From an uncultured Ignavibacteriaceae bacterium (GTDB lineage Bacteria > Bacteroidota > Ignavibacteria > UBA10030 > BY39), in contig CAZOQB010000003.1 of NCBI GenBank assembly GCA_964581995.1, positions 41,989 through 105,988 on the forward strand: a stretch of 64,000 bases of DNA, given 5' to 3'. Position numbers and translations under genes: made by a program. Positions 2,752 to 46,746 of the stretch are shown in pieces. Under the pieces are notes generated by a model, which was not told the DNA's origin, made no database searches, and worked only from the letters and a program-made list of their open reading frames with translations. How positions within the stretch are numbered: position 1 is the stretch's first letter; each line of letters begins with the position of its first letter.

Positions 2752-2851
2752 AATTAATTCAATAGTGCGCACTCTTTCAATACATGACGGGCGCAAAAAG
2801 GTTCAAGATGAAAACGAGTGATACATTGCAACTATATCGAAGGATAGACCA

Positions 2852-3139
2852 ATGAATAGTATAGGCCCGGATTCAAAGGTAGAAGACAATTCTACTGCTT
2901 ATCAAGACACTCCAATTGTCTCAAAAGCCCTACGACAGACAAAGCGAGTCATTGTTATCGTTATTGGCTTTTCAATCCTTTTTGTGGGGATTGCTATGTT
3001 TGTTTTGCCGGGACCCGATATTCTTGTCATACCGCTTGGACTGAGGATCCCCGCAACCGAGTTGCTTTGGGCGAGGTATCTACTGAAAACAATAAAAAAT
3101 AAATTTTATCAAAAAAAGGAAATGAACCATGCCAATTAA
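2852..3139 (+). CDS. Small transmembrane protein, PGPGW-like
   Basis: 95 aa, two TM helices, LPGPD motif. Confidence 0.45.
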   Translation: MNSIGPDSKVEDNSTAYQDTPIVSKALRQTKRVIVIVIGFSILFVGIAMFVLPGPDILVIPLGLRIPATELLWARYLLKTIKNKFYQKKEMNHAN

Positions 3140-3434
3140 ACCGAGTGACAAAGAAGAAGATTACTTTGCGAGACTTGATCTTGAAAGAAGGAAAAAAATC
3201 GAAGGGGAGAAACTCAAACAGATTGCAGAGGAGGAAAAAAGACAACTCAAGGAACTCCACTATATGCGCTGTCCGAAGTGTGGAATGAAACTAAACGAGA
3301 TAGATTATAAAAGTATTAAAGTTGACAAATGCTTCAGTTGCGATGGCGTATGGCTTGATGCTGGAGAACTTGAGTCGGTCGCTAAACTCGAAAAAGGAGC
3401 ACTGGACAAGTTGTTCGGTGTCTTTAAGAAATAA
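3129..3434 (+). CDS. Zinc-ribbon domain protein
   Basis: CPKCG...CFSCDG four-Cys ribbon in a charged N-terminal context. Overlaps the upstream gene by 11 nt. Confidence 0.55.
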   Translation: MPIKPSDKEEDYFARLDLERRKKIEGEKLKQIAEEEKRQLKELHYMRCPKCGMKLNEIDYKSIKVDKCFSCDGVWLDAGELESVAKLEKGALDKLFGVFKK

Positions 3435-3453
3435 TACATTTTTAATTAAATTT

Positions 3454-3675
3454 ATGAAAAAGAATATCTTTGAAACGATTCGTTATTTTGCTAAGAACAT
3501 TGCCATTGTTATTGGCATCGTTCTAATTTGGCGAGGTATTTGGTATGTACTCGATTACTTTGACATGTTGTTTTTTCAAGGTAATCATCTGCCTTTGGCT
3601 GTCGGAGGCATTATTATAGGCTTGTTAATACTTTATTTGCCAGATAGAGATCTCAAAGAAATTGAGAAGCTTTAG
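3454..3675 (+). CDS. Small hydrophobic membrane protein (73 aa), hypothetical
   Basis: ATG at 3454 inside a longer ORF-track entry. Two predicted TM helices. Placed in the operon by position. Confidence 0.4.
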   Translation: MKKNIFETIRYFAKNIAIVIGIVLIWRGIWYVLDYFDMLFFQGNHLPLAVGGIIIGLLILYLPDRDLKEIEKL

Positions 3676-3692
3676 TCAAATAATTACAACAG

Positions 3693-4151
3693 ATGAAGAT
3701 CAAAAAGGAAAATATGAATCATATAACAGTAAGAGAAGGAAGCGATTACTTTAGAGGATTACTTCTGCTAATCAGTAAAGACCGAAAGATTTCTGAACCA
3801 GAGATTATCCTGATGAAACGCATTGGTAAAGCTTTAGGGTTTGAAAAAGATTTCTGTAATAACGCCATTCATGAGATTCTCGAAAACAAACATGTCTCAA
3901 TTGAACCGCCCAAATTCTCAACGAATGAATTGGCGAAGAAATTCATCAAAGACGGTCTGATGTTAGCAGACTCTGATAATGAAATCCATGCATTTGAAGA
4001 AGTTTGGCTAAAAACTACGGCAGAGAAAAATGGTATTGACATAGAATTGTTTCTTCGAGAGAAAGAGATTGCTGCCGGAAGAAGAAGAGACCTCGATGAT
4101 CATTTGGAAGTGGACGATCTTACCGTAGAACATTCAAGACGCGACACATGA
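3693..4151 (+). CDS. TerB-like (tellurite-resistance TerB / DjlA-N fold) protein
   Basis: About 150 aa, helical, with an ADSDNEIHAFEEVWL acidic motif resembling TerB. The family call is tentative. Confidence 0.4.
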   Translation: MKIKKENMNHITVREGSDYFRGLLLLISKDRKISEPEIILMKRIGKALGFEKDFCNNAIHEILENKHVSIEPPKFSTNELAKKFIKDGLMLADSDNEIHAFEEVWLKTTAEKNGIDIELFLREKEIAAGRRRDLDDHLEVDDLTVEHSRRDT

Positions 4152-4240
4152 TCATAGTGACTTTCGATACCAAAATTATAGGTGCAGACACAATCAATCT
4201 ACTCAACAACGGTGTTCAACAATAACAAAAAGGACAGCCT

Positions 4241-4699
4241 ATGGCAAAACCCATAACACGACAATCATTTGATCGAATCACGAGATCTTTTATCTATCTT
4301 GTCAGGTGGTTCGAACGATTTCTGGCGATCGGTGTGCTGATTGGTGTCATTGTGCACACTGTTTCAAGCACGGTCATCTTCACCAGCATGGACTGGGGGC
4401 TTACAGAGACTCTTTACGACTTGATCTACCGTGCGCTGTTGTTGGTGATCGGGCTGGAACTCGTGCGGATGCTGGTCGTGCACGACCTAATGGCAATCTT
4501 GGAATTGCTGGCCTTCGTCATCGCACGCAAGATGTTGAAGCCCGATATCGATGGGCTTGACATCCTTCTGGCAGTCGTGGCGTTCGTGGCACTGCTGGCG
4601 GCGCGCCGTTATTTGCTGTCCGCTCCCGGCCCTCCTGCAAAGAAGGAAAGCAAAGAGGATAACACCGAACTATATAAATCTGAAATGAAAGGTGTGTAG
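4241..4699 (+). CDS. PsiE-like small inner-membrane protein
   Basis: 152 aa, four hydrophobic helices, architecture matches the phosphate-starvation-inducible PsiE family. It sits at the start of the high-GC block. Confidence 0.4.
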   Translation: MAKPITRQSFDRITRSFIYLVRWFERFLAIGVLIGVIVHTVSSTVIFTSMDWGLTETLYDLIYRALLLVIGLELVRMLVVHDLMAILELLAFVIARKMLKPDIDGLDILLAVVAFVALLAARRYLLSAPGPPAKKESKEDNTELYKSEMKGV

Positions 4700-4717: not shown

Positions 4718-4981
4718 TTGGAGTTCCATAGCATGACTGGATTATTAGTCGTAGTTGCCACGGGATTCCTTTTGCCTTTCATTGCGCCGCAGGTAAACCG
4801 CTGGCTGAATCGTAAAGTGACCGTCGCAATTTGTGGGAGCGGACCGGTGATCGCATTTGCCAATTTCGTGAGTCTTGCCGATCCTATGAGTAAAGGCGAA
4901 TCGCTAACATTCTCTCCTCACTGGATACGAAGCATCGGCTTCAACCTCTCGTTCTTTGCTGACGGATTGAGTATTCTTTAA
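4718..4981 (+). pseudogene. N-terminal fragment (87 aa) of an MrpA/MnhA/NuoL-type antiporter subunit
   Basis: ..LLPFIAPQVNRW...WIRSIGFNLSFFADGLSIL resembles the MrpA/NuoL N-terminus (WIPSLGINFTVYIDGLGLLF). The ORF stops after 87 codons, whereas full proteins are >600 aa. Confidence 0.55.
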
Positions 4982-5023: not shown

Positions 5024-7738
5024 ATGGAAATATTAATAGGTAAGCACTGGCATCACCTGCCAACAGATGAAGTAATTGACCTCCTGGATAGTGATCAGGG
5101 AAAGGGGCTGGATCTTTTCGAGGTCGACCATCGCCAGAAAGAATTCGGTCCCAATGCTATCACCGGGAAAAAGGGGAAAGGACCGCTGCTGCGCTTCCTT
5201 CTCCAATTCCATCAGCCCCTGATCTACATTCTGCTGGCGGCCGGTTCAGTTACGGCCTTTCTTCAGGAATTGGTCGATGCCGGTGTTATTTTCGGAGTTG
5301 TGCTGGTCAATGCGCTCATAGGTTTTATCCAGGAAGCAAAAGCGGTCAAAGCCATAGAAGCTTTGGCCAGGACAATGACAACTGAGGCAACTGTGTTGCG
5401 GGCGGGCGAGAAACAACGCATCTCCTCGGCAGAAGTGGTCCCGGGCGACATCGTCCTTCTGCAGTCCGGTGACAAAGTGCCCGCGGATATGCGCCTATTT
5501 CAAACACGAGATCTTCAGGTGGATGAGTCCGCCCTAACCGGAGAGTCGGTGCCCGTGGATAAAAAACCGGATGTCCTCGACCACGACACGGGACTGGCTG
5601 ACCGGCAAAACATGGCGTATGCCTCGAGTCTAGTCACCTACGGTCAGGGTATCGGCATTGTCGTAGCTATTGGTGACAAGACGGAAGTGGGGCGCATCTC
5701 TGAACTTATCTCGTCAACAGAGGCATTGGAGACCCCGCTGACCCGTAAGATTGCCCGCTTCAGTCATATCCTGCTCTACGCGATCCTGGCACTTGCCGCG
5801 CTCACTTTTGTCGTAGGCCTCATACGGGGACAATCCGTCTTTGATATGTTCATGGCGGCTGTAGCCCTGTCAGTAGGTGCTATCCCTGAGGGCCTGCCGG
5901 CTGCGCTGACGATTACTCTGGCCATCGGTGTTGGCCGGATGGCGCGCAGGCGGGCCATAATCCGAAAACTCACAGCAGTGGAGACCCTCGGCAGCACAAC
6001 AGTCATCTGCTCCGACAAGACCGGTACTCTGACTGAGAACCAGATGACGGTGCAGGAGATCTTTGCAGGCGGTGAGCGATTTGAAGTCACCGGCGCAGGC
6101 TACACGCCCTCAGGCCGGATTCTCAAACAAGGGATTGCGGTGGATGCGTCAGGGTCACCGGCGCTGATGGAATGTCTGAAAGCAGGCTTATTGTGCAACG
6201 ACAGTTTGCTGTTGAAGAAAGAGGGCCGCTGGGCAATACAGGGTGATCCCACTGAAGGAGCGTTGCTGGTTTCTGCGGTCAAGGCAGGGCTCGACATGGC
6301 CACCGTACAAAAGGGATTGCCTCGCATCGATGCAATCCCTTTCGAATCGCAGCACCAGTATATGGCTTCCCTGCATGACAAAGGAAAGGACAATCCCGGC
6401 ATCATATATGTCAAGGGTTCTGTGGAAGCCATCATGGAAAGATGTGTTTCATCCCTTGATACAACTGGGCATCCTGCTGAACCGAATGTCGAACAGATTC
6501 ATAGAGCAGTGGAGGAAATGGCAGCCAATGGAATGCGGGTGCTCGCTTTTGCAAAAGGCGAAATCAAGCCCGGGACAACCGGGCTGAATCACCCTGATGT
6601 GGCTTTCGGCTTGATCTTTCTCGGTCTCCAGGGAATGATCGATCCGCCCCGGCAGGAGGCAATCCTCGCAGTTCAGAAGTGTCACACAGCGGGTATTCGC
6701 GTCAAGATGATCACCGGCGATCACGCCCTCACAGCTTCCTCGATTGCGCAGCAGGTTGGCCTTCACAATCCGTCCAATGTTGTCACCGGAAAGGCCTTGA
6801 TGAAAATCTCCGACAGGGAACTGATTGATGTTGCCGACCGTACATTTGTTTTCGCCAGAGTAACGCCTGAGCAAAAACTCCGCCTGGTTGAAGCCCTGCA
6901 GGTCAAGGGGAACGTTGTAGCCATGACCGGAGACGGGGTTAATGATGCCCCGGCTCTGAAAAGGGCAGACATCGGAGTGGCGATGGGCATCACCGGAACC
7001 GACGTAGCAAAAGAGGCAGCCGATATGGTGCTAACGGACGACAACTTCGCCTCCATAGAAGCCGCTGTAGAGGAAGGGCGGGGCATCTTCGATAATCTCA
7101 CCAAGTTCATCATCTGGACACTTCCCACCAACCTCGGTGAGGGACTGGTGATTCTCGCAGCGATATTCGCCGGTGCTACATTACCTATACTGCCGGTGCA
7201 GATTCTCTGGATCAATATGACAACCGCCGTGCTGCTGGGACTCATGCTTGCCTTCGAGCCTAAGGAGCCTGGCATTATGACACGGCCGCCACGCGATCCT
7301 AAGACGCCTATACTTACGCGGGAGTTGATCGGGCGGATTTTTATCGTGAGTACGCTCTTGCTCATCGGAGCATTCGGTCTTTTTGAGTGGGAACTCATGC
7401 AGGGGGCAGTCATACCTGAGGCGCGTACAGTCGCGGTAAACGTCTTTGTCATAGTTGAACTTTTCTACCTCTTCAATTGTCGGTCGCTGACAAAGTCCGT
7501 GTTCAGGATCGGTCTTTTTTCAAACCCCTGGGTGTGGGGCGGAGTTACCATTATGGTGATCTTGCAGTTGCTCTACACATATTTACCGGTCATGAACAGG
7601 ATGTTCCATAGCGCGCCTATCAGCATCGAGGCCTGGGAGCGGATATTGGCAGTAGCGCTCATCGCATTCTTTGTGGTGGGCTTCGAAAAATGGCTCCGTC
7701 AAAGGCTTTCGAAGAGATGGTCTGTTCAACGAATATAG
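5024..7738 (+). CDS. Cation-transporting P-type ATPase (type II/III, Ca2+/Mg2+-like)
   Basis: DKTGTLT phosphorylation motif, TGD, MTGDGVNDAPAL hinge, ten TM helices, 904 aa. Local GC is clearly higher than the flanks. Confidence 0.9.
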   Translation: MEILIGKHWHHLPTDEVIDLLDSDQGKGLDLFEVDHRQKEFGPNAITGKKGKGPLLRFLLQFHQPLIYILLAAGSVTAFLQELVDAGVIFGVVLVNALIGFIQEAKAVKAIEALARTMTTEATVLRAGEKQRISSAEVVPGDIVLLQSGDKVPADMRLFQTRDLQVDESALTGESVPVDKKPDVLDHDTGLADRQNMAYASSLVTYGQGIGIVVAIGDKTEVGRISELISSTEALETPLTRKIARFSHILLYAILALAALTFVVGLIRGQSVFDMFMAAVALSVGAIPEGLPAALTITLAIGVGRMARRRAIIRKLTAVETLGSTTVICSDKTGTLTENQMTVQEIFAGGERFEVTGAGYTPSGRILKQGIAVDASGSPALMECLKAGLLCNDSLLLKKEGRWAIQGDPTEGALLVSAVKAGLDMATVQKGLPRIDAIPFESQHQYMASLHDKGKDNPGIIYVKGSVEAIMERCVSSLDTTGHPAEPNVEQIHRAVEEMAANGMRVLAFAKGEIKPGTTGLNHPDVAFGLIFLGLQGMIDPPRQEAILAVQKCHTAGIRVKMITGDHALTASSIAQQVGLHNPSNVVTGKALMKISDRELIDVADRTFVFARVTPEQKLRLVEALQVKGNVVAMTGDGVNDAPALKRADIGVAMGITGTDVAKEAADMVLTDDNFASIEAAVEEGRGIFDNLTKFIIWTLPTNLGEGLVILAAIFAGATLPILPVQILWINMTTAVLLGLMLAFEPKEPGIMTRPPRDPKTPILTRELIGRIFIVSTLLLIGAFGLFEWELMQGAVIPEARTVAVNVFVIVELFYLFNCRSLTKSVFRIGLFSNPWVWGGVTIMVILQLLYTYLPVMNRMFHSAPISIEAWERILAVALIAFFVVGFEKWLRQRLSKRWSVQRI

Positions 7739-7931: not shown

Positions 7932-8906
7932 TTGGAGATCATAATGAAGACACAGCATACATTAAACGATGAACACAACCACGATTTCCATGAATCGAAG
8001 CGACATATAGAAAAACGGACATTAATTGTCGTTTTGTTGACCATTGCGACCATGGCAGTAGAGATTACCGCCGGAATGATGTTTCATTCGATGGCGCTTC
8101 TTGCCGATGGTTGGCATATGGGCACACACGCAACGGCATTAGGAATTTCACTGATGGCATACGTGCTGGCACGCCGCCATTCGTTGGATAAACGATACGC
8201 ATTTGGGACCTGGAAGATAGAAATACTTGGCGCATATACGAGTGCTCTCATTCTCGGTATAGTTGGACTCTCGTTAGTTGTTGCATCTGTCGATCGTTTA
8301 ATGAATCCTCAAGCTATCGATTACACTTTAGCAATAATTGTTGCTGTTGCCGGCTTGCTAGTAAACATTGTCAGTGCGTTCATTATGAATGCCGGCAGTA
8401 CACATAAAGATTCCTCTCACTCTGAATCTTCACATTCGTCTCACACTCACAACGATTTGAATCTTCGGTCAGCGTATCTCCACGTTATTGCCGATGCTGC
8501 AACATCGGTACTTGCTATTGCCGCTCTTATTGGAGGGCAAATGTTTGGATGGATTTGGCTCGATCCTATGGCAGGATTGATCGGCGCAGCCATGATCGCC
8601 CGATGGACTGTTTCTCTCTTGCGTGATAGCTCAGCAATTCTGTTGGACAGAGAAATGGATTCACCGTTAGTAGAACGAATAAAAACGGCTATCGAGGTTG
8701 ATGGCAGCAGCAAGGTGAATGATCTTCATCTGTGGCGGGTTAGCGACGCGCGCTATGCATGCATTGTGTCGGTATGTTCAACGGTGCCGCACTCAGCCGA
8801 CCGCTACCGGAAAACATTAAGTGGTTTTAAAGAGATCACACACCTGACTATAGAAACACATTGGCATGAGGAAGGGACAGATCAATTCTCAGATAAGTTG
8901 GCATAG
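7932..8906 (+). CDS. Cation diffusion facilitator family transporter (CzcD/ZitB-like)
   Basis: Six TM helices. His-rich loop HKDSSHSESSHSSHTH. C-terminal cytoplasmic domain. Confidence 0.9.
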   Translation: MEIIMKTQHTLNDEHNHDFHESKRHIEKRTLIVVLLTIATMAVEITAGMMFHSMALLADGWHMGTHATALGISLMAYVLARRHSLDKRYAFGTWKIEILGAYTSALILGIVGLSLVVASVDRLMNPQAIDYTLAIIVAVAGLLVNIVSAFIMNAGSTHKDSSHSESSHSSHTHNDLNLRSAYLHVIADAATSVLAIAALIGGQMFGWIWLDPMAGLIGAAMIARWTVSLLRDSSAILLDREMDSPLVERIKTAIEVDGSSKVNDLHLWRVSDARYACIVSVCSTVPHSADRYRKTLSGFKEITHLTIETHWHEEGTDQFSDKLA

Positions 8907-11781: not shown

Positions 11782-13803
11782 TTGATGCACGAACTCGACA
11801 TACTCAGCGAACTTGTGCTACTACTCGCGGTAATAATAGTTGTGATTTCTATTTTCAGAAAAATTAATATTCCACCGCTTGTGGGTTTCTTGATCAGTGG
11901 ACTAATCATCGGTCCTTACGGAATTAAACTAGTCAAGAATATAGAAGCGGTAAATGTTCTTGCTGAAGTCGGTGTTGTGCTTTTACTTTTTACAATCGGA
12001 CTTGAGTTTTCGTTAATGCGATTAAAACGGATTAAGAAAATTGTTTTGATAGGCGGTGGCTTACAAGTTCTCTTAACTATTATAGTCGTAACATTTTTAC
12101 AAATGGTGATGGGTTTGGAGTTTCGGCAATCACTCTTCGTGGGCTTTTTAATCTCACTCAGCAGTACCGCAATTGTAATGAAACTGCTTACCGAAAAAGC
12201 AGAAACAGATACACCTCACGGGAAGATATCTCTCGGCATTTTGCTTTTTCAAGATTTATGCATCGTTCCGATGATGTTATTGGTTCCAGTTCTTGCTGCT
12301 TCGAGCGGGACCACTGTCATTGATGTTGTACTGAATTTTATAATTTCACTCGCTGGCATAGGTGTTATAATTGTAGCCGCTATCTACCTAATGCCCAAGT
12401 TGGTAGAGTTTTTAGTTCTTGCTAAAAGTCGAGAACTGTTTGTAATTGGTGTTGTGTTTTTGAGTTTAGGAACAGCACTCGTTACTTCGTACGTTGGACT
12501 ATCGCTCGCTTTAGGAGCGTTCATCGCCGGCTTAATTTTATCAGAATCTGAATACTCGCATGAAATCGTAGGCGCTGCTTTGCCGTTTCGAGATGCACTA
12601 AGCAGTCTGTTCTTCATTTCAATCGGAATGTTGGTGAACATTAATTTACTTTTTGAAAAATCGGTTCTCTTAATTTTTATCTCGGCAATAATCGTGGCGA
12701 TAAAATTTATCATTGCTGCTTTAGTAGTTTTGTATCTTTCATTTCCGGCACGAACTGCTATCATCGTGGGATTTTCATTATCTCAAATTGGTGAGTTTTC
12801 ATTTATACTCGCACTGGCTGGAATATCATCCGGACTGATGAACAACGAAACGTATCAAATGTTTTTGGGTGCATCCATAATAACTATGATATTGACTCCG
12901 TTGTTCATTCAATTTTCCACTCCAACGGCACATTTCCTTCAAAAAATATTACCTCACAAAATCATCACGCACTTCTTTAATCGAATTGTTGCCGATGAAG
13001 TGGTTGATAAATACACACTATCTGATCTTAAAAATCACGTGATAATCGTAGGATATGGATTGAATGGAAAAAATGTTGCATCGGTTTTAAAAGAAACAGG
13101 AATTAAATATTTGATGGTTGATTTAAACGGTGAGACCGTCAAAGCCGCACGGAAGTTAGGAGAAAATGTAATATATGGCGATGCTACACGAAAAGAAATG
13201 CTGCAGCACTTAGGTATTGAGACTGCGCGCGTATTAGTGATTTCGATTTCAGACTCGGACGCAATGAGGCGGATATTAAAAACTGCCCGAAACCTTAACC
13301 CGGATTTACACATTATATCTAGAACGAGGTCGGTTGCTGATATCGAAGATCTATACAAATTAGGCTCGGATGAAGTAATTCCTGAAGAGTTTGAAACTTC
13401 GATTGAAATATTTATGCGAGTTCTACGGCAGTATCATTTGCCTCGAAACATAATTGCAGCACAAGTTGATTTGATACGGCGTGAAGGATACGGAATGTTC
13501 CGCGGACTGAAACTCCCCGATGCAACGATGGACCAATTAACCGCAATACTCGCGGCAGGGACGACAGATACATTTCTCGTTTTAAATGAGTCGCCCGCTT
13601 GTGGAAAAACTTTAGCCGACTTAAATTTACGATTTCTTTCGGGATGCTCCGTAATCGCAGTCGTCCGCGATAATAAGCCGACTACAAACCCACCCGCTGA
13701 TTTAAAAATAGAACCGGGTGACGTTATGGTGCTCTTAGGAACACACGCCGAGATAGATAAAGCGTTTGATTTATTAAGCCCGCCGAGGATGGAAGAAGGC
13801 TGA
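11782..13803 (+). CDS. CPA2 family cation:proton antiporter (Kef-type) with RCK/TrkA-N and TrkA-C domains
   Basis: N-terminal ~390-aa multi-TM Na_H exchanger domain. IIVGYGLNG Rossmann (TrkA-N). C-terminal TrkA-C. Confidence 0.85.
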   Translation: MMHELDILSELVLLLAVIIVVISIFRKINIPPLVGFLISGLIIGPYGIKLVKNIEAVNVLAEVGVVLLLFTIGLEFSLMRLKRIKKIVLIGGGLQVLLTIIVVTFLQMVMGLEFRQSLFVGFLISLSSTAIVMKLLTEKAETDTPHGKISLGILLFQDLCIVPMMLLVPVLAASSGTTVIDVVLNFIISLAGIGVIIVAAIYLMPKLVEFLVLAKSRELFVIGVVFLSLGTALVTSYVGLSLALGAFIAGLILSESEYSHEIVGAALPFRDALSSLFFISIGMLVNINLLFEKSVLLIFISAIIVAIKFIIAALVVLYLSFPARTAIIVGFSLSQIGEFSFILALAGISSGLMNNETYQMFLGASIITMILTPLFIQFSTPTAHFLQKILPHKIITHFFNRIVADEVVDKYTLSDLKNHVIIVGYGLNGKNVASVLKETGIKYLMVDLNGETVKAARKLGENVIYGDATRKEMLQHLGIETARVLVISISDSDAMRRILKTARNLNPDLHIISRTRSVADIEDLYKLGSDEVIPEEFETSIEIFMRVLRQYHLPRNIIAAQVDLIRREGYGMFRGLKLPDATMDQLTAILAAGTTDTFLVLNESPACGKTLADLNLRFLSGCSVIAVVRDNKPTTNPPADLKIEPGDVMVLLGTHAEIDKAFDLLSPPRMEEG

Positions 13804-14134
13804 TAGTCAATGGTTATTGATTAATGATTAATTGGCAATTAGCAATTCGGAATTCGTAATTCGTAATTGTTAATGGTTAATGTCCGATCGGAATAGCGGA
13901 TGAATAAATTGGTGGATTGGTGGAGTGATGGAGTTATGTAAAAATAAAAAGAAGGGCCGAAACGGAGATTCGGGGTTTTAAAAATTAAGCGTTGGTTTTA
14001 TACCTCACAATTTTGTATTTTAAACACCATTATATGCAAAACATAAAACATATTGATTCACTTGAGTTATCGGAACTTCAGTCATATCGAACAATGCGTC
14101 GGGCGGCTGGGCACGTCAAGCAAGGAATATTTGT
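13488..14134. repeat. Direct repeat copy 1 (kef 3' end, intergenic region, 5' end of TrmH-like gene)
   Basis: Near-identical to 15322..15892, apart from an internal low-complexity indel of about 70 bp at 13805-13895 and a few SNPs. Confidence 0.85.
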
Positions 14135-14239
14135 AACTTCATATGAGAAAAGGAAACTAAATTCTTGAAGAGCTATATTGCTAATCTTGAGAAGAAGATT
14201 ATCCCTAAACAGAAAAATATTTCAAAGGGTGCTTGACCC

Positions 14240-15292
14240 GTGATAAAGAGATTAAATCAAAGACGGAAAGGAGCTTTTACGGTGAAATTGATAAAACGAT
14301 TTGATAAACAGTTTTCTGAAGTCGTAAATATGATTCATCATGCTCGCTACGACGCTATCAAAAGCGTAAATGCTGAATTGGTAAAACTGTATTGGAGCAT
14401 TGGCGAATATATTAACAAAAAGATTGCAGCGGCTGAGTGGGGCGATGCTGTTGTTGACCAACTTGCCGATTATATTCAAGTAAACTATCCGGAATTTAAA
14501 GGTTTTACGCGTCGCGGGTTATATCGAATGCGCCAGTTTTATGAAACATACCACCGTAACAAATTTGTGTCAACACTGTTGACACAAATCAGTTGGTCCA
14601 GTCATCTGCACATCCTTTCTAAAACAAAAACCGTCGAAGAAAAAGCATTTTATCTCCGTCTTGCTGTAAAGGAACAATATTCCGTTCGTGAATTAGAACG
14701 CCAAATGGAAAGCGGTTATTACGAACGAGTCATGCTAACCAAGAAAAAAGTGTCATCACCGCTGACACAAACCACTAAAGACATTACCACCGTATTCAAG
14801 GATACTTATATTCTGGATTTTTTAAACCTTCCAGAAATTCACAGCGAAAAAGATTTGCAGAAAAGTATAGTTTCGAATTTGAGAGATTTTATTCTTGAAT
14901 TCGGAAAAGATTTCGCTTTTATCGGACAGGAATACCACCTACAGGTGGGTAAAAACGATTATTTTATCGATCTGCTTTTCTTTCATCGCGGCATCCAATG
15001 TCTTGTTATGGTTGAGCTTAAAATCACCGATTTCAAACCGGAATATCTTGGGAAAATGAATTTTTACCTTGAAGCGTTAGACAGAGACATTAAAAAAGAA
15101 AATGAAAATCCCAGTGTCGGCATTATTTTATGCAAGTCAAAAGACGATGAGGTTGTGGAGTACGCATTAAGCCGTCATCTTTCGCCAACGCTCGTAGCCG
15201 AATATAAAACAAAATTAATACCTAAGAAAATATTGCAAAAAAAATTGCACGAGCTTTTTCTTTTGCGAGAGAAAAAAATCGATGGAAACTAA
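14240..15292 (+). CDS. DUF1016/YhcG family PD-(D/E)xK nuclease
   Basis: YhcG_N-type motif ISWSSHLHIL. C-terminal nuclease core D(x)n-ELK (FIDLLFFHRGIQCLVMVELK). The GTG at 14240 is one possible start, the ATG at 14330 another. Confidence 0.7.
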   Translation: MIKRLNQRRKGAFTVKLIKRFDKQFSEVVNMIHHARYDAIKSVNAELVKLYWSIGEYINKKIAAAEWGDAVVDQLADYIQVNYPEFKGFTRRGLYRMRQFYETYHRNKFVSTLLTQISWSSHLHILSKTKTVEEKAFYLRLAVKEQYSVRELERQMESGYYERVMLTKKKVSSPLTQTTKDITTVFKDTYILDFLNLPEIHSEKDLQKSIVSNLRDFILEFGKDFAFIGQEYHLQVGKNDYFIDLLFFHRGIQCLVMVELKITDFKPEYLGKMNFYLEALDRDIKKENENPSVGIILCKSKDDEVVEYALSRHLSPTLVAEYKTKLIPKKILQKKLHELFLLREKKIDGN

Positions 15293-15321
15293 TTGGGCGA
15301 AATAAGTGAAATAACCAATGA

Positions 15322-15637
15322 ATACGGAATGTTCCGCGGACTGAAACTCCCCGATGCAACGATGGACCAATTAACCGCAATACTCGCGGCAGGGACGACA
15401 GATACATTTCTCGTTTTAAATGAGTCGCCCGCTTGTGGAAAAACTTTAGCCGACTTAAATTTACGATTTCTTTCGGGATGCTCCGTAATCGCAGTCGTCC
15501 GCGATAATAAGCCGACTACAAACCCACCCGCTGATTTAAAAATAGAACCGGGTGACGTTATGGTGCTCTTAGGAACACATGCCGAGATAGATAAAGCGTT
15601 TGATTTATTAAGCCCGCCGAGGATGGAAGAAGGTTAA
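15322..15637 (+). pseudogene. Duplicated 3' fragment of the kef gene (TrkA-C region)
   Basis: Encodes YGMFRGLKLPDATMDQL...PPRMEEG, identical to the Kef C-terminus at 13488..13803. No N-terminal part is present. Confidence 0.8.
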
Positions 15638-15892
15638 TGGTCAGTCGGAATAGTGGATGAATAAATTGGTGGATTGGTGGAGTGATGGAGTTATGTAAAA
15701 ATAAAAAGAAGGGCCGAAACGGAGATTCGGGGTTTTAAAAATTAAGCGTTGGTTTTATACCTCACAATTTTGTATTTTAAACACCATTATATGCAAAACA
15801 TAAAACATATTGATTCACTTGAGTTATCGGAACTTCAGCCATACCGAACAATGCGTCGGGCGGCTGGGCACGTCAAGCAAGGAATTTTTGTC
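15322..15892. repeat. Direct repeat copy 2
   Basis: See 13488..14134. Confidence 0.85.
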
Positions 15893-16669
15893 GCCGAAAG
15901 CGAGAAGGTTGTTCGTAAATTGCTTGCGTCTAACATCACCATCATGTCAATGCTTATAACTCCACAATGGTATGAAAATATATTTTCTGATAATCCCCGC
16001 CCGAACGACGAAGGCGGGTGGGCAACAACCCAACAATCGAACGCTACGACAGAATTATCTCCGGACTTTACTATTTACATCGCGGAAAAATCGCTCCTCG
16101 AATCAATAGTCGGATTTGATCTTCACCAGGGTATAATGGCAGTTGCGAAAATTCCTAAGCCGCTATTAATTGAAGAGGTATTAAAACAATCTTTGCAGCC
16201 GTATTTGTTTGTTGCCTTAGATGGACTTACAAATGCGGATAACTTGGGTGTTATTGTAAGAAACTGTGTTGCGTTTGGTGCAACAGGATTGATTGTTGGA
16301 GAGACATCAAGCAGTCCTTATTTAAGGCGCGCAATCAGGCAGTCGATGGGATATGTATTTGACCTTCCGGTTATTCACGTTTCCGATCTTGCAGCGACGC
16401 TGAAATTAATGTCCGCTAAATACAACATCCAAACTATTGCCGCCGATGCGCACGCAAATGTAGTATCGGTCGAGGAAGCAAATTTAAAAGAAAATATTTG
16501 TATCGTTCTCGGAAGTGAAGCAAGCGGAATAAGAAAAAATGTTCTCGACGCGTGTATTGAGAAAGTTACAATTCCTCTCAGTGGTAAAGTTGATTCGCTG
16601 AATGTTGCAAGCGCGAGTGCAATATTTTTATGGGAAGTAAAAAGAAAGAGAATCTCAGATATTAAGTGA
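15791..16669 (+). CDS. TrmH/SpoU-family RNA 2'-O-methyltransferase
   Basis: SPOUT-like C-terminal motifs (LVLGSEASGIRKNVL, IPLSGKVDSLNVASASAI). The ATG at 15791 is the likely start, with a TTG at 15749 as alternative. The 5' end lies inside repeat copy 2. Confidence 0.7.
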   Translation: MQNIKHIDSLELSELQPYRTMRRAAGHVKQGIFVAESEKVVRKLLASNITIMSMLITPQWYENIFSDNPRPNDEGGWATTQQSNATTELSPDFTIYIAEKSLLESIVGFDLHQGIMAVAKIPKPLLIEEVLKQSLQPYLFVALDGLTNADNLGVIVRNCVAFGATGLIVGETSSSPYLRRAIRQSMGYVFDLPVIHVSDLAATLKLMSAKYNIQTIAADAHANVVSVEEANLKENICIVLGSEASGIRKNVLDACIEKVTIPLSGKVDSLNVASASAIFLWEVKRKRISDIK

Positions 16670-19044: not shown

Positions 19045-19575
19045 TTACTTGCCTTTGCGTGTTTGTCTAACGCTGCCTTTTGGGCCGGTGCCGTCGCAGT
19101 TACCTGTTCCTGTACCCGGTCCGAATCCTGAACCATCTTTTGGACCTACGCCTTTGTTGCCTGTGCCGTCGCCAGGACCAAATCCGCCGTTACCATTTTT
19201 TGCATTCTTACCGTTCATCATTTTACGACCTGTTCCATCTTGCGGTTTTACGTAGTCAGGGTCTTGTCCGTTTGGAATACCATCTCCATCGGAATCGATT
19301 GCATTGTCGTTTAGACCGTCGCCGTTAAGGTCGATAAAACCCTTTGTGCCTGTTCTGTTTTCTGGTTTTACGTAGTCAGGGTCTTTTCCGTTTGGAATAC
19401 CATCTCCGTCGGAATCGATTGCGTTATCGTTGATACCGTCGCCGTTAAGGTCGATGAAACCTTTTGTTCCTTTGCCACCTTTTGCGGTCTGGGCATTCGC
19501 ATCAGTCGATGCGAATAAGAATACTACTGCTACTAAAGCAAGTAGTGTTGTGAGTAATTTAATTTTGTTTATCAT
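19045..19575 (-). CDS. Secreted protein with tandem thrombospondin-type-3-like calcium-binding repeats
   Basis: Signal peptide. Two near-identical copies of TKGFIDLNGDG(I/L)NDNAIDSDGDGIPNG(K/Q)DPDYVKP. Gly-rich C-terminus. Confidence 0.6.
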   Translation of the reverse strand: MINKIKLLTTLLALVAVVFLFASTDANAQTAKGGKGTKGFIDLNGDGINDNAIDSDGDGIPNGKDPDYVKPENRTGTKGFIDLNGDGLNDNAIDSDGDGIPNGQDPDYVKPQDGTGRKMMNGKNAKNGNGGFGPGDGTGNKGVGPKDGSGFGPGTGTGNCDGTGPKGSVRQTRKGK

Positions 19576-31475: not shown

Positions 31476-31792
31476 GAAGCAGAAGAGCCGCCGAACAAAG
31501 CGTGCACATGACTGGGGGAGTCGGCGCGATTTATGAGCATTTTCTACACTTTTACAGTTTCCTGCTTCCGAGCCTTTTCCTACTCCCGCCCGCTAGCAGG
31601 TAACGCTCACCGTTAGGTAACTATGCAAAGGCATTCCAAATGAACGAAACATTTCCATTCGGCAGACCAATTATTCCTGTAGAACAAAGAGACAGAAATG
31701 AGGTTGAACGAACTTCAGTTCGTTAAATATATTACAAAAACGAAATAAATTTCGTTCTACATTTCCACCCCTTGTTCAAAAAAATGTTTATT

Positions 31793-31880
31793 CCTTATAA
31801 ATCCCTACCACCACTCTCCCATTCTCATCAATAAAAAAACCCATCCTGGTTTTTTCATCAGAATGGGTTTTGATTTTTTT
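31793..31880 (-). terminator. ~85-bp terminator-associated repeat element, copy A
   Basis: Hairpin cccattctgatga..caggatggg followed by a T-run on the minus strand, directly 3' of the oxidase subunit I gene. About 80% identical to 49196..49280. Confidence 0.6.
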
Positions 31881-31889
31881 TTGGAGAAA

Positions 31890-33518
31890 TTACTTAGTCG
31901 ATGGAATCAAGTCCTTCGTTTTCAATTTCGATGGGGAAAAGATTCCTATTACTCCGTTCAATCCCACTGTCATAACTATATTATAGAAAAACGCGATGAA
32001 GGCAATCAGCAATAATGAGCCGGAAAGAGCCGCAAGTATCATATAGCTGTTGAACTCACCCTCGAAATACAAGGTACGTCTCAACATTCCCTGCAATCCT
32101 GCCATTCCCATGAAAGCGCCCATTCCAATTCCTCCGATCAGGTGCGCCCAGAAATGGAAACTTGCCAATTTATCGCTGTACAACTTTGCGCCGTTCGTGA
32201 GAATCGGTAACAACAGATAGATCGCGGAATATAATGTCATTGTCAGTCCTACTAATATTGCAACATGCACGTGCGGACCGACGATCCATTGCGTGTTATG
32301 GAGAATTCTATTCAAGCCCAAATCTGCCTGCATAATTCCGGCTGGAACTGCCAGAGCAAATCCCAATAATCCGCCGAGCAGGAATTTTAACGGGTGAGTC
32401 ATCTTGAGTGGTCTCGCACTCCAGAGAGTAACGAGCGTTATGAAAAATGCCAGACCTTGTGTAATAAGTTCGAAGGCGGTTACCATTTCACCCGAAACAA
32501 TTTTTAGAATTCCCGGCTGTGCCTGATCGGACATCAGATGATGCGACCATACTGTCCACGAGACAACCATCTCAATAAATAATGCGGCACGGGCAACATT
32601 CTCCATGAAAAGTTTTTTCCCCGTAATCATCGTCGCTAATAAATACCAGGTTCCGGCAACAAATATTAATACTAATCCATCGGCAATGAGGTCGAGTCCC
32701 CACCAAAACCAATTCTTGTATAACAACGCATCAACCGCAGAGTGTTTTAAACTGACTCCAAATAACTCCGCTACCATGTAAACAAGAATCAATACACCTG
32801 TAAAAATGATGATGCCCGCATTGAGGGCTGTGTCAACTGTGCCTCTTGCAATGGCGGCAACCGGTAAAGAAACTAAATGTTCTTTTTTCTTTTTTGAAAA
32901 TAGATTTTTCAATCCGGTTAAACCAAGCGCCGATTTCATCAATGCGCCGCCATTCTGTTTTTCCCATCCTTCAGGCGTATAGGTGATCGTCTTGAAAATA
33001 TTAATGACGAAAAATGTGGTGCCCACCATTACTATGGCAATACCGAAGATGAAGAAGGTTCCACCAACAACGCTGAACTGAGTAAAGTCTGCCGGCAGGG
33101 GCCAGTACAGTGTGTAGAGAGGACTGTAATGCGAAACAAATCCGGAGAACCAGAAAATAAAAGTTCCCACAGCAATTAACCATAATGTCCAATTGCCGAG
33201 TTTGATACTCCATAATGGTTTTTTCATAAGAAACGGAACGAGGAATAAGAACGCTCCGAAAACTATGGAGTAGGTCGAGCCAAAAATTCCGACTAACGGA
33301 TGTGCGGTTAGGATGGCAAAGAACTGTTCGTTTGAAACGAGCGGAAAAGGAGCGACCTCGTACAAACGCATGATCATTCCTTCGACAACAGCCAATCCGT
33401 AATAAAGCAAGCCCACAACGACGAATCGTAATGCAAGCTTCTGCATCGGCGTCAGGGTGTTCGGCTTAAATAAACCCTGCTCACCGTGTGTAAGTGTTTT
33501 TATAAAGCTCATATTCAT
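31890..33518 (-). CDS. Heme-copper oxidase superfamily subunit I-like protein (putative NO reductase or atypical oxidase)
   Basis: 542 aa, 12+ TM helices, His pairs at WSHHLM and GPHVHVAIL consistent with CuB and heme ligands. No CuA-bearing partner. Next to an Rrf2 regulator. Confidence 0.65.
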   Translation of the reverse strand: MNMSFIKTLTHGEQGLFKPNTLTPMQKLALRFVVVGLLYYGLAVVEGMIMRLYEVAPFPLVSNEQFFAILTAHPLVGIFGSTYSIVFGAFLFLVPFLMKKPLWSIKLGNWTLWLIAVGTFIFWFSGFVSHYSPLYTLYWPLPADFTQFSVVGGTFFIFGIAIVMVGTTFFVINIFKTITYTPEGWEKQNGGALMKSALGLTGLKNLFSKKKKEHLVSLPVAAIARGTVDTALNAGIIIFTGVLILVYMVAELFGVSLKHSAVDALLYKNWFWWGLDLIADGLVLIFVAGTWYLLATMITGKKLFMENVARAALFIEMVVSWTVWSHHLMSDQAQPGILKIVSGEMVTAFELITQGLAFFITLVTLWSARPLKMTHPLKFLLGGLLGFALAVPAGIMQADLGLNRILHNTQWIVGPHVHVAILVGLTMTLYSAIYLLLPILTNGAKLYSDKLASFHFWAHLIGGIGMGAFMGMAGLQGMLRRTLYFEGEFNSYMILAALSGSLLLIAFIAFFYNIVMTVGLNGVIGIFSPSKLKTKDLIPSTK

Positions 33519-34671: not shown

Positions 34672-34828
34672 ATTAATGTAAAGGTTTTTTCGCCATCCAC
34701 GCTAACCAAACGATGACCGACCAAATTATTGAGCGCAAACCCATAGCATGTACGCTGTGCAATGCAACAACGCCACCCAAAATATGCATTATGCTAACGA
34801 GAGCCAATACAATCAGGTGCATTGCCAA
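34672..34828 (-). pseudogene. Remnant (C-terminal ~50 codons plus 15 nt of 3' UTR) of a paralog of the 51279..51668 membrane-protein gene
   Basis: About 95% nucleotide identity to 51293..51450. No upstream portion of the gene is present. Confidence 0.7.
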
Positions 34829-45381: not shown

Positions 45382-46260
45382 ATGATCGAACAACTTATTC
45401 TCAATGGAATAATTGCTGGCAGTATTTACTCACTCGTTGCCATCGGCTTCGCTCTCATCTACCAAACCACCCGCTTCTTTCACTTCGCTCACGGCGCTGT
45501 TTATACATTCGGCGCTTACTTCGCTTATCTGTTTTACACACAGCTTGGGTTAGATAGATTTGTAGCGTTTCCTCTCGCTTGCATCTGCGCAGCACTTATC
45601 GGCGTAATCTGCGAAATCATTATTTATAAACCGATGCGAGCGAGGAAAGCAACCGACCTTACATTACTCATAGCATCGCTTGGTCTCTACATCGTTTTAC
45701 AAAATATCATCTCCATGCTCTGGGGAGACGATACTAAAACAATGCGAACAGGTGAAGTGGTTGAGGGACATGAATTTCTTGGCGCACGAATTACAGATAT
45801 CCAAATCGCAATCATCGTAACGTCTATCGTTTTGATTGCGCTGATTTCGCTGATGTTATCGAGGATGAAGTTTGGTAAGGCACTGCGTGCGCTGGCGAAT
45901 GATCCTGAGCTTGCACGGCTGAGCGGTATCAACTCTGATCGGTATATCATGTATGCGTTTGCTATCGGCTCGTTCTTAGCTGCCGTTGCTGCAATTATGA
46001 TCTCGTTTGATACAGACATGACTCCGACTATGGGCTTCAATGCGTTGGTTATGGGAGTGATTGCTGTGATTGTCGGCGGAATTAACAGTTTGCCGGGTGC
46101 GGCGCTTGGTGGTTTGTTTATCGGTCTTGCACAGAATTTAGGTGTGTGGCAGTTGCCCTCAAAGTGGCAGGATACGATAGCGTTTGTGATACTGATTTTG
46201 TTTTTACTTTTTAGACCGTATGGAATACTCGGGAAGAAACCGACGAAGGAACATGTATGA
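45382..46260 (+). CDS. livH: Branched-chain amino-acid ABC transporter permease (LivH-like)
   Basis: 292 aa, eight or more TM helices, typical LivH N-terminus. Confidence 0.8.
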   Translation: MIEQLILNGIIAGSIYSLVAIGFALIYQTTRFFHFAHGAVYTFGAYFAYLFYTQLGLDRFVAFPLACICAALIGVICEIIIYKPMRARKATDLTLLIASLGLYIVLQNIISMLWGDDTKTMRTGEVVEGHEFLGARITDIQIAIIVTSIVLIALISLMLSRMKFGKALRALANDPELARLSGINSDRYIMYAFAIGSFLAAVAAIMISFDTDMTPTMGFNALVMGVIAVIVGGINSLPGAALGGLFIGLAQNLGVWQLPSKWQDTIAFVILILFLLFRPYGILGKKPTKEHV

Positions 46261-46323
46261 TTTCACAGATTGCACAGATTGGACGCAGATGGTGATTATG
46301 CAGATTGCACAGATGATACACAG

Positions 46324-46746
46324 ATGAGCGAGCGAGAAAAATATCCGTTGAAGGAGTTGACTGAGAAGATTATCGGCGCAGCATATGAAGTGCATAACAC
46401 ACTCGGCGGCGGGTTTGTAGAGAAGGTGTATGAGAATGCGTTAATAGAAGAGTTGCGTGAACATGGTTTTATTATTGAACAGCAGAAACCGGTGAGCGTT
46501 TTATACAAAGGGAAATCCGCAGGTGAGTTCATTGCAGATATGATTGTGGAAAAGAAGGTGCTTGTTGAAGTGAAGTCAGTAAAAATGTTAACAAAAGATT
46601 TCGACTCAAAGTTGATTCATTACCTCAAAGCTACAGGCATTGAAGTTGGCTTATTAATCAATTTCGGTGAGAGTGTACAAGTTCATCGTAAAATCTATAC
46701 TCCAAAACAAAAACAATCTGTGAATAAATCTGCGCAATCTGAGTAA
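46324..46746 (+). CDS. GxxExxY family protein (PD-(D/E)xK-like)
   Basis: GGGFVEKVYENAL motif. About 140 aa from the MSEREK start. Inserted between livH and livM. Confidence 0.75.
   Translation: MSEREKYPLKELTEKIIGAAYEVHNTLGGGFVEKVYENALIEELREHGFIIEQQKPVSVLYKGKSAGEFIADMIVEKKVLVEVKSVKMLTKDFDSKLIHYLKATGIEVGLLINFGESVQVHRKIYTPKQKQSVNKSAQSE

Follow-up and report, generated by a model that had tools for sequence, protein, structure and literature searches.

A DUF1016/YhcG nuclease gene between long direct repeats of a kef–trmH boundary: a probable insertion with long target duplication in an uncultivated Ignavibacteria-like lineage

Insertion of restriction–modification (RM) genes with long target duplication was reportedly described by Nobusato et al. 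in 2000 (Gene 259:99). Circular DNA sharing homology with a chromosome, e.g., a suicide plasmid, can enter it by a single crossover (Campbell-type integration). [quoted passage not shown] According to the same passages, the repeats were up to ~420 bp long and spanned start or stop sites, a strict first screen called for homologs of both R and M in the insert, cases such as an mcrA nuclease on its own or an orphan methylase passed a second screen, and the mechanism of the insertion was left unexplained (PMC2853133). Tandem amplification of RM units located between long direct repeats is attributed to Sadykov et al. (2003) in excerpts of two papers (PMC2853133, PMC3031569). DUF1016/YhcG genes, in turn, have been noted, in an excerpt of a further source, between the core genes of Type I RM loci (PMC9881135); the excerpts of the DUF1016 literature considered here do not mention target duplications flanking the cassette.

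Here, we describe a locus found in the window, i.e., the whole 64-kb stretch of DNA that was analysed, where foreign DNA (X) is bounded by two copies (R1 and R2) of the junction between the genes of a kef-type antiporter and a SpoU/TrmH-family methyltransferase (Table 1); the genes in the neighborhood are of the ABC transporter, kef, SpoU and SlipAM types. This locus probably is an insertion with long target duplication, an already described route for defence genes. Its direct repeats of 570/647 bp are 98.4% identical, a single copy is present in sister-species genomes (L086–L091), and X harbors no integrase, transposase, prophage or tRNA. Instead of the R and M homologs of the strict screen, the insert contains a DUF1016 nuclease gene and no more than the remnant of a methylase gene; the wider definition of the class is used here, since the second screen of Furuta et al. 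admits lone mcrA and orphan M genes (in the passages considered; PMC2853133). Common to the window and to the class are foreign RM-derived DNA below 20 kb lacking mobility genes and long direct repeats of variable length which are single in the empty-site genome. In both, the presence of a stop codon and a start codon within the repeats leaves the two neighboring genes intact. The window differs in the length of the repeat (570 bp today and no less than 599 bp originally, vs. up to ~420 bp in the passages of PMC2853133), in its insert being a decayed operon with an accessory DUF1016 nuclease as the sole survivor, in its uncultivated Ignavibacteria-like host, and in the legibility of its later history (nested deletions, gene conversion and a mosaic allele). 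The remark in a preliminary description of this DNA that the mechanism is not obvious was fair, but the product itself belongs to a described class (PMC2853133, in part). The case extends the entry of defence genes without mobility enzymes beyond cultured Proteobacteria and Helicobacter, with an unusually long repeat whose decay can be traced through three lineages.

Table 1. Features of the kef/trmH locus (positions in the window)
Feature	Position	Strand	Remarks
kef-type K+/H+ antiporter gene, intact	11782..13803	+	Pfam Na_H_Exchanger, TrkA_N, TrkA_C; orthologous position in L086/L089
R1, upstream target copy	13488..14134	+	647 bp; kef 3' end (last 105 codons), intergenic region, first 33 trmH codons
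77-bp degenerate heptamer array	13810..13886	.	present in R1, missing from R2
Terminator-like hairpin 3' of kef	13957..13973	.	second copy 15714-15730
Dead trmH 5' stub ORF, 44 aa	14034..14168	+	crosses from R1 into X
X, inserted foreign DNA	14135..15321	+	1187 bp; missing at sister-species loci L086-L091
N6-adenine DNA methylase gene remnant (HSDR_N_2 + N6_Mtase type)	14140..14281	+	
DUF1016/YhcG PD-(D/E)xK nuclease gene, intact	14282..15292	+	ORF 14240/14282-15292
Mosaic patch in nuclease gene	14573..14810	+	61/66 differences from L181 allele
Shortened second copy of methylase 3' end	15293..15314	+	TTGGGCGAAA...GAAATAA
Dead Kef C-terminal ORF	15293/15329-15637	+	whole TrkA_C domain
Right junction, J2	15320..15331	.	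GAATACGGAATG
R2, downstream target copy	15322..15891	+	570 bp; runs into intact trmH
SpoU/TrmH-family RNA methyltransferase gene, intact	15791..16669	+	

The position of the repeats and their extent, from the kef end across the intergenic region into the trmH start, agreed with the preliminary description, and so did the succession of an intact kef and a dead trmH stub, followed beyond X by a dead Kef C-terminal ORF ahead of the intact trmH-like gene; the latter ORF, supported by both ORF and Pfam analyses, starts (15329) 37 nt past the nuclease stop. The low-complexity indel of ~70 bp reported in R1 only is the 77-bp heptamer block. The single SNP counted earlier gave way to nine substitutions (13746, 13800, 13802, 13805, 13887, 13897, 14082, 14087, 14129). 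A match of 570 bp with 98.4% identity cannot have arisen by chance. The starts of corresponding segments of R1 and R2 are spaced by 1834 bp in the left part of the repeat and by 1757 bp in its right part, and the 64-kb window contains no third copy. The heptamer block is also missing from L086 and L089, and the functional intergenic region of another lineage, L180, bears a heptamer-rich tract akin to it. In the intergenic/trmH part, nearly all states departing from the outgroups (L086/L089) reside in R1, the dispensable copy, whereas R2, which drives trmH, agrees with the outgroups at most of such sites.

The nuclease was initially thought to be the sole gene of the insert. It is indeed the only intact one, but remnants of a DNA methylase gene are also present: roughly codons 5–50 of a methylase fused to its last few codons and a 13-nt leader, with stops and frameshifts. 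The window (14162-14257) aligns over 97 bp, at 81% identity (E 2e-18), with positions 3970-4066 of L006, which form the 5' terminus of a methylase gene. The methylase-end sequence TTGGGCGAAA...GAAATAA, repeated in a shortened form after the nuclease gene, flanks DUF1016 in L005 and L007 as well, and the nearest relatives of the gene have an N6_Mtase gene on one side and a Methylase_S gene on the other, resembling the position of DUF1016/YhcG in Type I RM loci. X therefore reads as the wreck of a methylase–DUF1016 RM operon, a remnant and not a system. Apart from the ~140-bp remnant, no methylase or Methylase_S gene was found in the window; a Type I-like RM operon was rejected as a description of X, as the intact methylase and specificity genes are missing. 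Compared with the DUF1016 genes embedded among Type I RM core genes, which belong to the same family (PMC9881135, in the excerpt considered), that of the window has lost the operon and is now an orphan at a housekeeping locus.

The assignment of the predicted protein to the DUF1016/YhcG family (the PF17761/PF06250 pair was tested) is based on matches to DUF1016_N (139 bits, 1e-40, cut-off 32.8, covering 1–137 of 137 positions) and YhcG_C (190 bits, 4e-56, cut-off 32.5, covering 3–156 of 157). The translation includes a predicted catalytic D...(D/E)xK motif (...IDLLFF...VMVELK...); the gene begins with GTG preceded by AAGGAG 8 nt upstream (14268-14273). The notion of DUF1016 as a sporadic, mobile, defence-linked cargo was borne out by homologs 75–86% identical in amino acid sequence across many phyla, by the match of the gene to the PADLOC candidate PDC-S02, and by the relatives in RM operons. 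The dN/dS of the nuclease gene is 0.08 (vs. L180): the gene is under purifying selection and is the only part of X kept by selection. Since R1 places a second copy of the entire kef–trmH intergenic region upstream of the gene, the candidate promoter of the nuclease is, most likely, the duplicated one of trmH. A sigma-70 scan of the intergenic region returned nothing convincing; the phylum of the host uses a different promoter consensus.

Near-identical repeats raise the question of the assembly. The left (J1, 14134/14135) and right (J2) junctions were found again in separate contigs from other assemblies, two of ENA and one of a Logan run (L001, L002, L003, L085); L001, L002 and L003 carry X with the same junctions, and L001 joins X, the short form of R2 and trmH at 100% identity to the window. 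The full path from kef through R1, X and R2 to trmH across an identical 184-bp stretch (13898-14081) is supported by the window contig alone. Two MEGAHIT assemblies stop within this stretch (L085 ends at 14081, and L001 begins at 13983), and L002 comprises 1757 bp, i.e., exactly one repeat period. One might hence suspect a phase artefact: a chromosome of the empty-site type, on which kef and trmH enclose the R that includes the 77-bp block, would have been wrongly threaded together with a separate molecule, circular or amplified, of X and the other R copy, a suspicion fed by the two breaks, by the closed 1757-bp loop, and by the k-mer content, which is the same for both phases at k below 184. 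We regard this as highly unlikely. L001 ties X to R2 and trmH; a 1.76-kb circle devoid of a replication gene could not persist; and the alternative phase would scatter the outgroup-departing changes, which cluster in R1. Furthermore, a single contig of the sister lineage L180 contains the kef 3' end, DUF1016, a dead kef fragment, the intergenic region and trmH, an integrated architecture that is unambiguous: its repeat copies are only 83.5% alike, too diverged to confuse an assembler.

The uninterrupted kef–trmH junction sought in relatives was found in L086–L091, where kef directly adjoins trmH, a single R is aligned and the upstream synteny is conserved; these genomes represent sister species, not the same species (TrmH 79–82% identical). 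The same DUF1016 gene occupies the kef/trmH locus in two further lineages, L180 and L181. In L181, J1 is identical, the right end of the insert is 115 bp longer, and R2 begins 29 bp earlier than in the window. The sequence GAATACGGAATG at J2 is the product of a deletion between the X-internal GATACCGAATG and the kef GATACGGAATG in an L181-like ancestor; the right junctions of the window and of L180 correspond to deletions at GATAC(C/G)GAATG and CCGACTTAA. The right junctions across the lineages thus look like nested microhomology deletions of a longer insert, and J2 is a secondary junction, not the original one. Because L180 and L181 share the locus with nested junctions, the duplication is real, old and common to several lineages, and 570 bp is a lower bound for a repeat originally spanning at least 599 bp.

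This contradicts the view of a very recent event, as do the divergence of the L180 repeats and a tract of exchange between R1 and R2. Two samples of the window's species differ at four sites in 8.3 kb, all within a 127-bp patch of R1, which is best read as a conversion tract; the left part of R2 in L181 is 7% diverged from kef. Considering the 83.5% in L180, the shared locus and the four-SNP tract, the near-identity of R1 and R2 in the window largely reflects gene conversion (concerted evolution) rather than recency. More generally, near-identical flanking repeats need not signal a recent insertion, since gene conversion can homogenize them.

We consider it probable that a fragment of a foreign RM operon was inserted with a long target duplication of recombinase-independent origin, and that decay and gene conversion ensued. 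The fragment would have comprised, in this order, the methylase, the DUF1016 nuclease and the start of a further gene, and at least 0.6 kb of the target would have been copied on both sides, which is why kef and trmH are both intact. The insertion may have been an illegitimate event, e.g., a replication template switch that left trmH at codon ~33 for the foreign DNA and returned to the chromosome in kef, ~0.6 kb farther back, or, equivalently, the joining of the fragment's ends to breaks at non-allelic sites of two sister chromosomes; only products duplicating, and not deleting, essential sequence would have survived. Of the methylase, hardly any coding sequence would then have been left, deletions between microhomologies of 9–11 nt would have shortened the insert on its right and R2 at its start, and RecA-type recombination between R1 and R2 would have homogenized parts of the repeats; in principle, such recombination could also excise or amplify the 1.76-kb unit. 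As in the amplification of Sadykov et al., the structure permits unequal crossing-over, and one sample yielded a one-period contig, although the window contains a single unit. Outside the mosaic patch, the nuclease alleles of the window and L181 are nearly identical.

No inverted repeats, transposase or integrase were found at the locus, nor a plasmid or phage carrier, and no tRNA in the 64 kb. A transposable element was rejected for want of terminal inverted repeats, a transposase and a short duplication of fixed length, and an integrase-mediated genomic island for want of an integrase and a tRNA. As with transposons and IS elements, a direct repeat of the target stands on both sides of the insert, but it is about 100 times longer, variable in length, and accompanied by neither inverted repeats nor a transposase; the earlier judgment that the duplication is too long for a transposase thus holds, the missing repeats and enzyme adding to it.

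The topology (homology, insert, homology) and its reversibility by recombination between the repeats are those of Campbell-type integration. Accordingly, X together with one R (1757 bp) might excise as a circle, enter relatives and re-integrate by a single crossover, making the duplication a footprint of the element's movement instead of a one-off accident. The crossover of an R-bearing circle yields exactly R–X–R, and the one-period contig L002 is what a closed cycle of the assembly graph would give, though de Bruijn graphs give it equally well for a tandem repeat, and the last 139 nt of L085, being the first 139 nt of L002 (k = 139), tie the loop to the chromosome. The same unit resides at the same locus in three lineages, and the nuclease genes of L180 and the window, 90% identical at the nucleotide level, are closer than the flanking host genes (78–82%). 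The kef fragment in the R2 of L180 is a mosaic, window-like on the left and L180-like on the right, resembling a crossover product, and horizontal transfer of the unit, instead of shared ancestry, could also connect L180 with the window; yet the right part of R1 in L180 is not donor-like, contrary to a simple Campbell product. In the passages considered here, Kobayashi's group proposed a life cycle of this kind and showed the amplification of RM units flanked by long repeats (PMC2853133). On the other hand, the circle would lack functions for replication or transfer, no vector backbone, origin or marker is present, both joints between insert and repeat are illegitimate, and the first capture of R by X would still require two illegitimate joins. 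We think this origin, by way of a putative circle, rather unlikely.

Wider evidence comes from a survey of DUF1016 loci across phyla, in which tight flanking direct repeats were found at 13 of the 136 loci vs. ~1% of shifted controls (P about 1.5e-9). The flanking duplications often donate start or stop signals. This may explain how a widely transferred candidate defence gene is expressed wherever it is inserted (at ~1/10 of DUF1016 loci), and it makes the mechanism behind insertion with long target duplication accessible to concrete tests. Duplications of 24–83 bp flush with the ORF (L005/L007, L066, L022, L116, L118, L109) recur in unrelated operons and phyla, kb-scale repeats surround the gene in L044, and the DNA similarity among distant loci ends at the ORF ends. 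Such a pattern would be expected if the nuclease itself cut gene boundaries, by staggered or paired breaks, and promoted the copying of its own gene into them, a homing-like process with variable duplication of which the kef/trmH event would be one instance. We find this quite improbable: the unit in the window is a fragment of a larger operon (methylase, DUF1016 and the next gene), not a bare ORF; Furuta et al. saw the same pattern in RM genes generally (as far as the passages considered go; PMC2853133); and selection for neighbor-sparing, signal-borrowing insertions could mimic it for any promoterless gene.

A still broader reading takes DUF1016/YhcG genes for widespread, promoterless and recombinase-free mobile nuclease cassettes. 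They may enter at gene boundaries with target duplications of variable length (24 bp to more than 1 kb), which may provide a promoter, start codon or stop codon, and the unit may loop out as a circle with its own target and re-enter relatives by homologous recombination. Taken jointly, these propositions seem to us a tentative and unlikely generalization; if true, the kef/trmH unit of the three lineages would represent one such element in the course of its movement. Matching empty sites for loci of the survey were found in L173 and L177.

The nuclease gene of the DUF1016 (YhcG) type is enclosed between two near-identical direct copies of host sequence, R1 upstream and R2 downstream, as confirmed by repeat search and alignment. 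Each copy runs from the last 105 codons of kef through the complete intergenic region, where a terminator-like hairpin is located, to codon 33 of the SpoU/TrmH gene, in line with the span given in the preliminary description (~105 and ~35 codons). Compared base by base, the copies are distinguished by nine substitutions, not by the single SNP counted initially, and by one low-complexity block, estimated at ~70 bp and measured at 77 bp, which is present in R1 only (13810–13886) and constitutes a degenerate heptamer array. The reading of this block as a derived expansion of R1 was dropped: a similar tract occurs in the functional intergenic region of L180, a contig from another lineage carrying the unit, so its polarity is uncertain.

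The gene content of the flanks was likewise described correctly. On the upstream side, the intact kef-type antiporter gene is followed by a dead trmH stub of 44 codons (14034–14168); on the downstream side, the intact trmH is preceded by a dead ORF for the Kef C-terminus in which the TrkA_C domain is complete. When the 64-kb window is compared to itself, R1 and R2 are the only copies of this sequence, and the trmH stub used as a query had its sole match in L001, a contig of another assembly. The sigma-70 promoter scan of the intergenic region returned no convincing site; the phylum's own promoter consensus differs. The dead Kef fragment (15329–15637), a stand-alone complete TrkA_C (RCK_C) ORF 37 nt past the nuclease stop, is predicted as a gene by gene callers. 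The TrmH protein (15791–16669; 292 aa) is 12–20 residues longer than its closest relatives (272–280 aa), the extra length lying apparently near residues 67–95 (PRPNDEGGWATTQQSNATTELSPD).

Coordinates of the duplicated target, the insert and comparable features in other loci (L-numbers denote comparison contigs and loci)
Feature	Locus	Coordinates	Length or content	Remarks
R1	window	13488–14134		repeat search and pairwise alignment
X (insert)	window	14135–15321	1187 bp	between R1 and R2; intact DUF1016_N + YhcG_C gene inside
R2	window	15322–15891		direct copy of R1; repeat search and pairwise alignment
Repeat around DUF1016	L005	5953–5989 / 7013–7049	37–39 bp (L005 and L007)	methylase 3′ end
Repeat around DUF1016	L007	5949–5987 / 7009–7047	37–39 bp (L005 and L007)	methylase 3′ end
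Repeat around DUF1016	L066	5927–5983 / 7002–7058	57 bp	
Repeat around DUF1016	L116	956–1038 / 2033–2114	67–83 bp	
Repeat around DUF1016	L118	3983–4032 / 5215–5264	50 bp	over stop/start overlap
Repeat around DUF1016	L109	3696–3762 / 4861–4927	67 bp	downstream gene's 5′ coding region
Repeat around DUF1016	L022		26 bp	
Empty site	L173	~6040–6095		
Empty site	L177	~6035–6080		
Remnant of gene after DUF1016 in original insert	L181	1231–1350	40 codons	MNTNTDLTFFTNEHGTALLDRFKQTLKDVRILDVLVGFFR

The empty site is seen in relatives. In the sister-species loci (L086–L091), which carry the closest TrmH relatives (79–82% identical), trmH directly follows kef, with the same ABC-transporter genes upstream and a single copy of R, aligned over its whole length. 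Since kef adjoins trmH with one R in these loci, the DNA between the two copies (X) is an insertion.

Both novel junctions are reproducible across assemblies, because they were recovered in contigs obtained independently of the window's source contig (219 kb, from a MAG). Thus, L001 (ERZ27284377) begins within R1 at 13983 and is 100% identical across X, R2, trmH and 10 kb further, and L085 (ERZ27284381) contains kef with R1 and ends at 14081, one base short of the point at which R1 and R2 first differ in that direction. A contig from the same sample as L085, L002, spans 1757 bp, exactly one repeat period, and its first 139 nt are the last 139 nt of L085 (k = 139). In the Logan sequence L003, the variant at 14129 and the X/R2 junction each lie 30 nt (k − 1) inside one end, as expected of a k = 31 unitig. 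Over the 184-bp identical stretch 13898–14081, the window contig is the only one to set the phase; the tandem phase is favoured by the pattern of outgroup states and by the L180 architecture. In the intergenic and trmH part, nearly all departures from the outgroups sit in R1, the dispensable copy, and R2, which serves trmH, has the outgroup state at most of the sites that differ in R1; in the sister lineage L180, the same architecture lies within one contig, with repeats too diverged for confusion. An assembly artefact is therefore considered highly improbable.

The nuclease gene is the only intact gene of X, as stated earlier, though not its sole content, since remnants of a methylase gene are present as well. 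Nuclease homologs at 75–86% amino acid identity were found in Ignavibacteriota, Bacteroidota, Planctomycetota, Omnitrophota, Elusimicrobia, Deltaproteobacteria and others, and the gene is widely transferred. In the closest genomes (L005, L006 and L007), it resides between a methylase gene (690 residues, HSDR_N_2 + N6_Mtase) and a Methylase_S gene; DUF1016 genes lying between core genes of Type I RM loci were noted earlier (PMC9881135). The DNA similarity of the window to these loci is limited to the nuclease ORF with one exception: window 14162–14257 is 81% identical to the beginning of the methylase coding sequence in L006. This match places the start of X no more than a few bases from the methylase's start codon; the methylase was lost from about codon 50 through to its last few codons. 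Ahead of the GTG start of the nuclease, X retains a short leader with AAGGAG and, past its stop, a second, shortened version of the methylase 3′ end. This downstream DNA was initially read as the start of hsdS; the reading was dropped, as L005, L007 and L181 (a contig from a further lineage with the unit) show that it is what is left of the methylase-end duplicate, with the start of another gene behind it. No second copy of X and no methylase or specificity gene were found elsewhere in the window. The methylase (with HSDR_N_2, N6_Mtase and Eco57I domains) is itself 76–88% identical across many phyla; in the loci with listed neighbours (L005, L006, L173–L179), it is partnered by a specificity gene with no HsdR gene adjoining.

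The preliminary description held the event to be very recent, a claim which did not survive the comparison with L181 and L180, two short Logan contigs harboring the nearest nuclease alleles and the same insertion. L181 (run SRR29054605) matches window 14099–15331, and its trmH stub, left junction and methylase remnant are 100% identical to those of the window. As many as 61 of the 66 differences fall within a 240-bp patch of the nuclease ORF (window 14573–14810), which is ~25% diverged from the L181 allele, the remainder of the 1.2-kb match being 99.5% identical; this mosaic suggests that diverged DUF1016 alleles have recombined. On the right-hand side of the nuclease, L181 possesses 115 bp absent from the window, representing the first 40 codons of an additional gene, and its R2 starts 29 bp further upstream in kef, where it is 7% diverged from the window kef. 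A deletion that joined GATACCGAATG in the extra DNA of the L181 type to GATACGGAATG in kef explains the right junction of the window. The 40-residue remnant (MNTNTDLTFFTNE...) had no match in NCBIfam, PADLOC or the comparison loci; its sequence is presumably similar to the N-terminal part of PLD-domain helicases.

L180 represents a more distant lineage (nucleotide identity to the window of 82% in kef and 78% in trmH). Its single contig reads kef 3′ end, 51 nt, DUF1016 (90% nucleotide identity), 44 nt, dead kef fragment, intergenic region, trmH; similarity between its kef copies is 83.5% over the 212 bp compared. Its right junction is a deletion at CCGACTTAA, common to kef and to the 5′ end of the gene after DUF1016. 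The states of the window, L181 and L180 derive in nested fashion from an insert that was longer and had a longer duplication; 570 bp is thus a lower bound, and the insertion predates, or has spread across, these lineages. The nuclease gene is under purifying selection, with dN/dS of 0.08 at dS of 0.45 versus L180, while all its surroundings decay.

The copies have seemingly exchanged sequence as well. Within the window's own species, L085 and the window differ over 8.3 kb at four positions only, all of them third-codon positions in a 127-bp stretch of R1 (window 13554–13680) throughout which R1 and R2 of the window are the same. Since the sole differences are clustered precisely there, the patch looks like a gene-conversion tract, another feature at odds with a very recent origin.

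Insertion with long target duplication is described in PMC2853133 for restriction–modification (RM) genes that lack a mobility gene and have on either side a long direct repeat of variable length, single-copy in the empty-site genome. Every RM type provides examples; their repeats measure 45 to ~420 bp and often span a start or stop codon, which leaves the neighbours intact, and the recorded cases include a lone mcrA nuclease and an orphan methylase. Repeat-flanked RM units can amplify via the repeats, and Kobayashi's group proposed a cycle of insertion, amplification and release, with experimental support for amplification only (PMC2853133). The window case has the structural features of this class and departs from it only by the strict requirement of an R plus M pair; judged by its sequence, the kef/trmH insertion is assigned to the class. 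The nuclease family corresponds to the PADLOC candidate PDC-S02.

The preliminary remark that the mechanism is not obvious was fair. The product has the order A-R1-X-R2-B, where A and B are the flanks, with no recombinase genes or specific ends, and bears the marks of secondary microhomology deletions and of conversion between the copies. A transposon target-site duplication, for which the repeat had already been deemed too long, is ruled out by the absence of inverted repeats and a transposase, and an integrase or tRNA island by the absence of an integrase and a tRNA; a simple tandem duplication cannot yield this order, X being absent from the flanks. Campbell-type integration of a circle carrying R would be consistent with the one-period contig L002, with the occurrence of the unit in three lineages and with R2 of L180 being a mosaic, and is nevertheless regarded as unlikely. 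No plasmid or phage carrying X was found, the matches being only to distant DUF1016 genes (64–77% nucleotide identity). The preferred reading is that the original event was illegitimate: a replication fork may have switched template from trmH into foreign DNA and then back into kef behind the exit point, or a fragment may have been joined between non-allelic breaks of sister chromosomes. Selection would then have kept only those products in which both neighbours are whole and a duplicated promoter or start signal precedes the promoterless cassette.

The significance of the case is carried mostly by its readable history and by target duplications across the nuclease family. For other loci, the 200 bp upstream of the DUF1016 start were aligned to the 200 bp downstream of the stop; the same window pair shifted along each locus served as the control, with its 99th percentile (score ≥ 14) as the threshold. 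This was reached in 8 of 75 genome loci and 5 of 61 metagenome loci, i.e., 13/136 combined versus a null rate of 1% (binomial P ~1.5e-9). Some of the 13 are weak (terminator-like or multi-copy repeats), and L005 and L007 count as one event, leaving about eight independent good cases. In the convincing cases, which come from unrelated RM operons and different phyla, repeats of 24–83 bp lie flush with the DUF1016 ORF, each being a copy of the end or start of the neighbouring gene. Two methylase-specificity operons without DUF1016, 80–87% identical to that of L007, contain the repeated segment in a single copy (L173 and L177), and in L066, the upstream copy provides the start codon of the nuclease via a duplicated ATGA overlap. 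Target duplications are not claimed for L102, L114 (included among the 13) and L127, where the repeats have the appearance of multi-copy elements or of DUF1016 paralogs in tandem.

A kb-scale analogue of the window structure is found in L044, a Clostridia MAG, where DUF1016 (1795–2823) lies between two paralogous DUF4062 + FGE-sulfatase genes of 1.2–1.6 kb; the repeats (179–1455 and 2839–4565) are 81–89% alike, and the second starts 16 nt past the nuclease stop. In an Elusimicrobia MAG (L014, 4456–4629), a perfect-looking array of 25 heptamers (AACAGTG) starts 42 nt past the DUF1016 stop; the heptamer differs from the tracts in R1 of the window and in the L180 intergenic region, and the resemblance may be a coincidence.

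Other repeats are present in the window. A 214-bp direct repeat of 92% identity (1–214 and 7975–8188), the second copy of which falls within a Cation_efflux gene in the L085 annotation, probably reflects paralogous cation-efflux genes. Listed as well are a 145-bp pair of 94% identity (34680–34824 / 51295–51439), a 68/60-bp pair of 75–78% identity ~17.4 kb apart (31787–31895 / 49193–49300), a tandem 120-bp duplication within a 176-residue ORF (19229–19468) and a 35-bp tandem pair (46258–46326).
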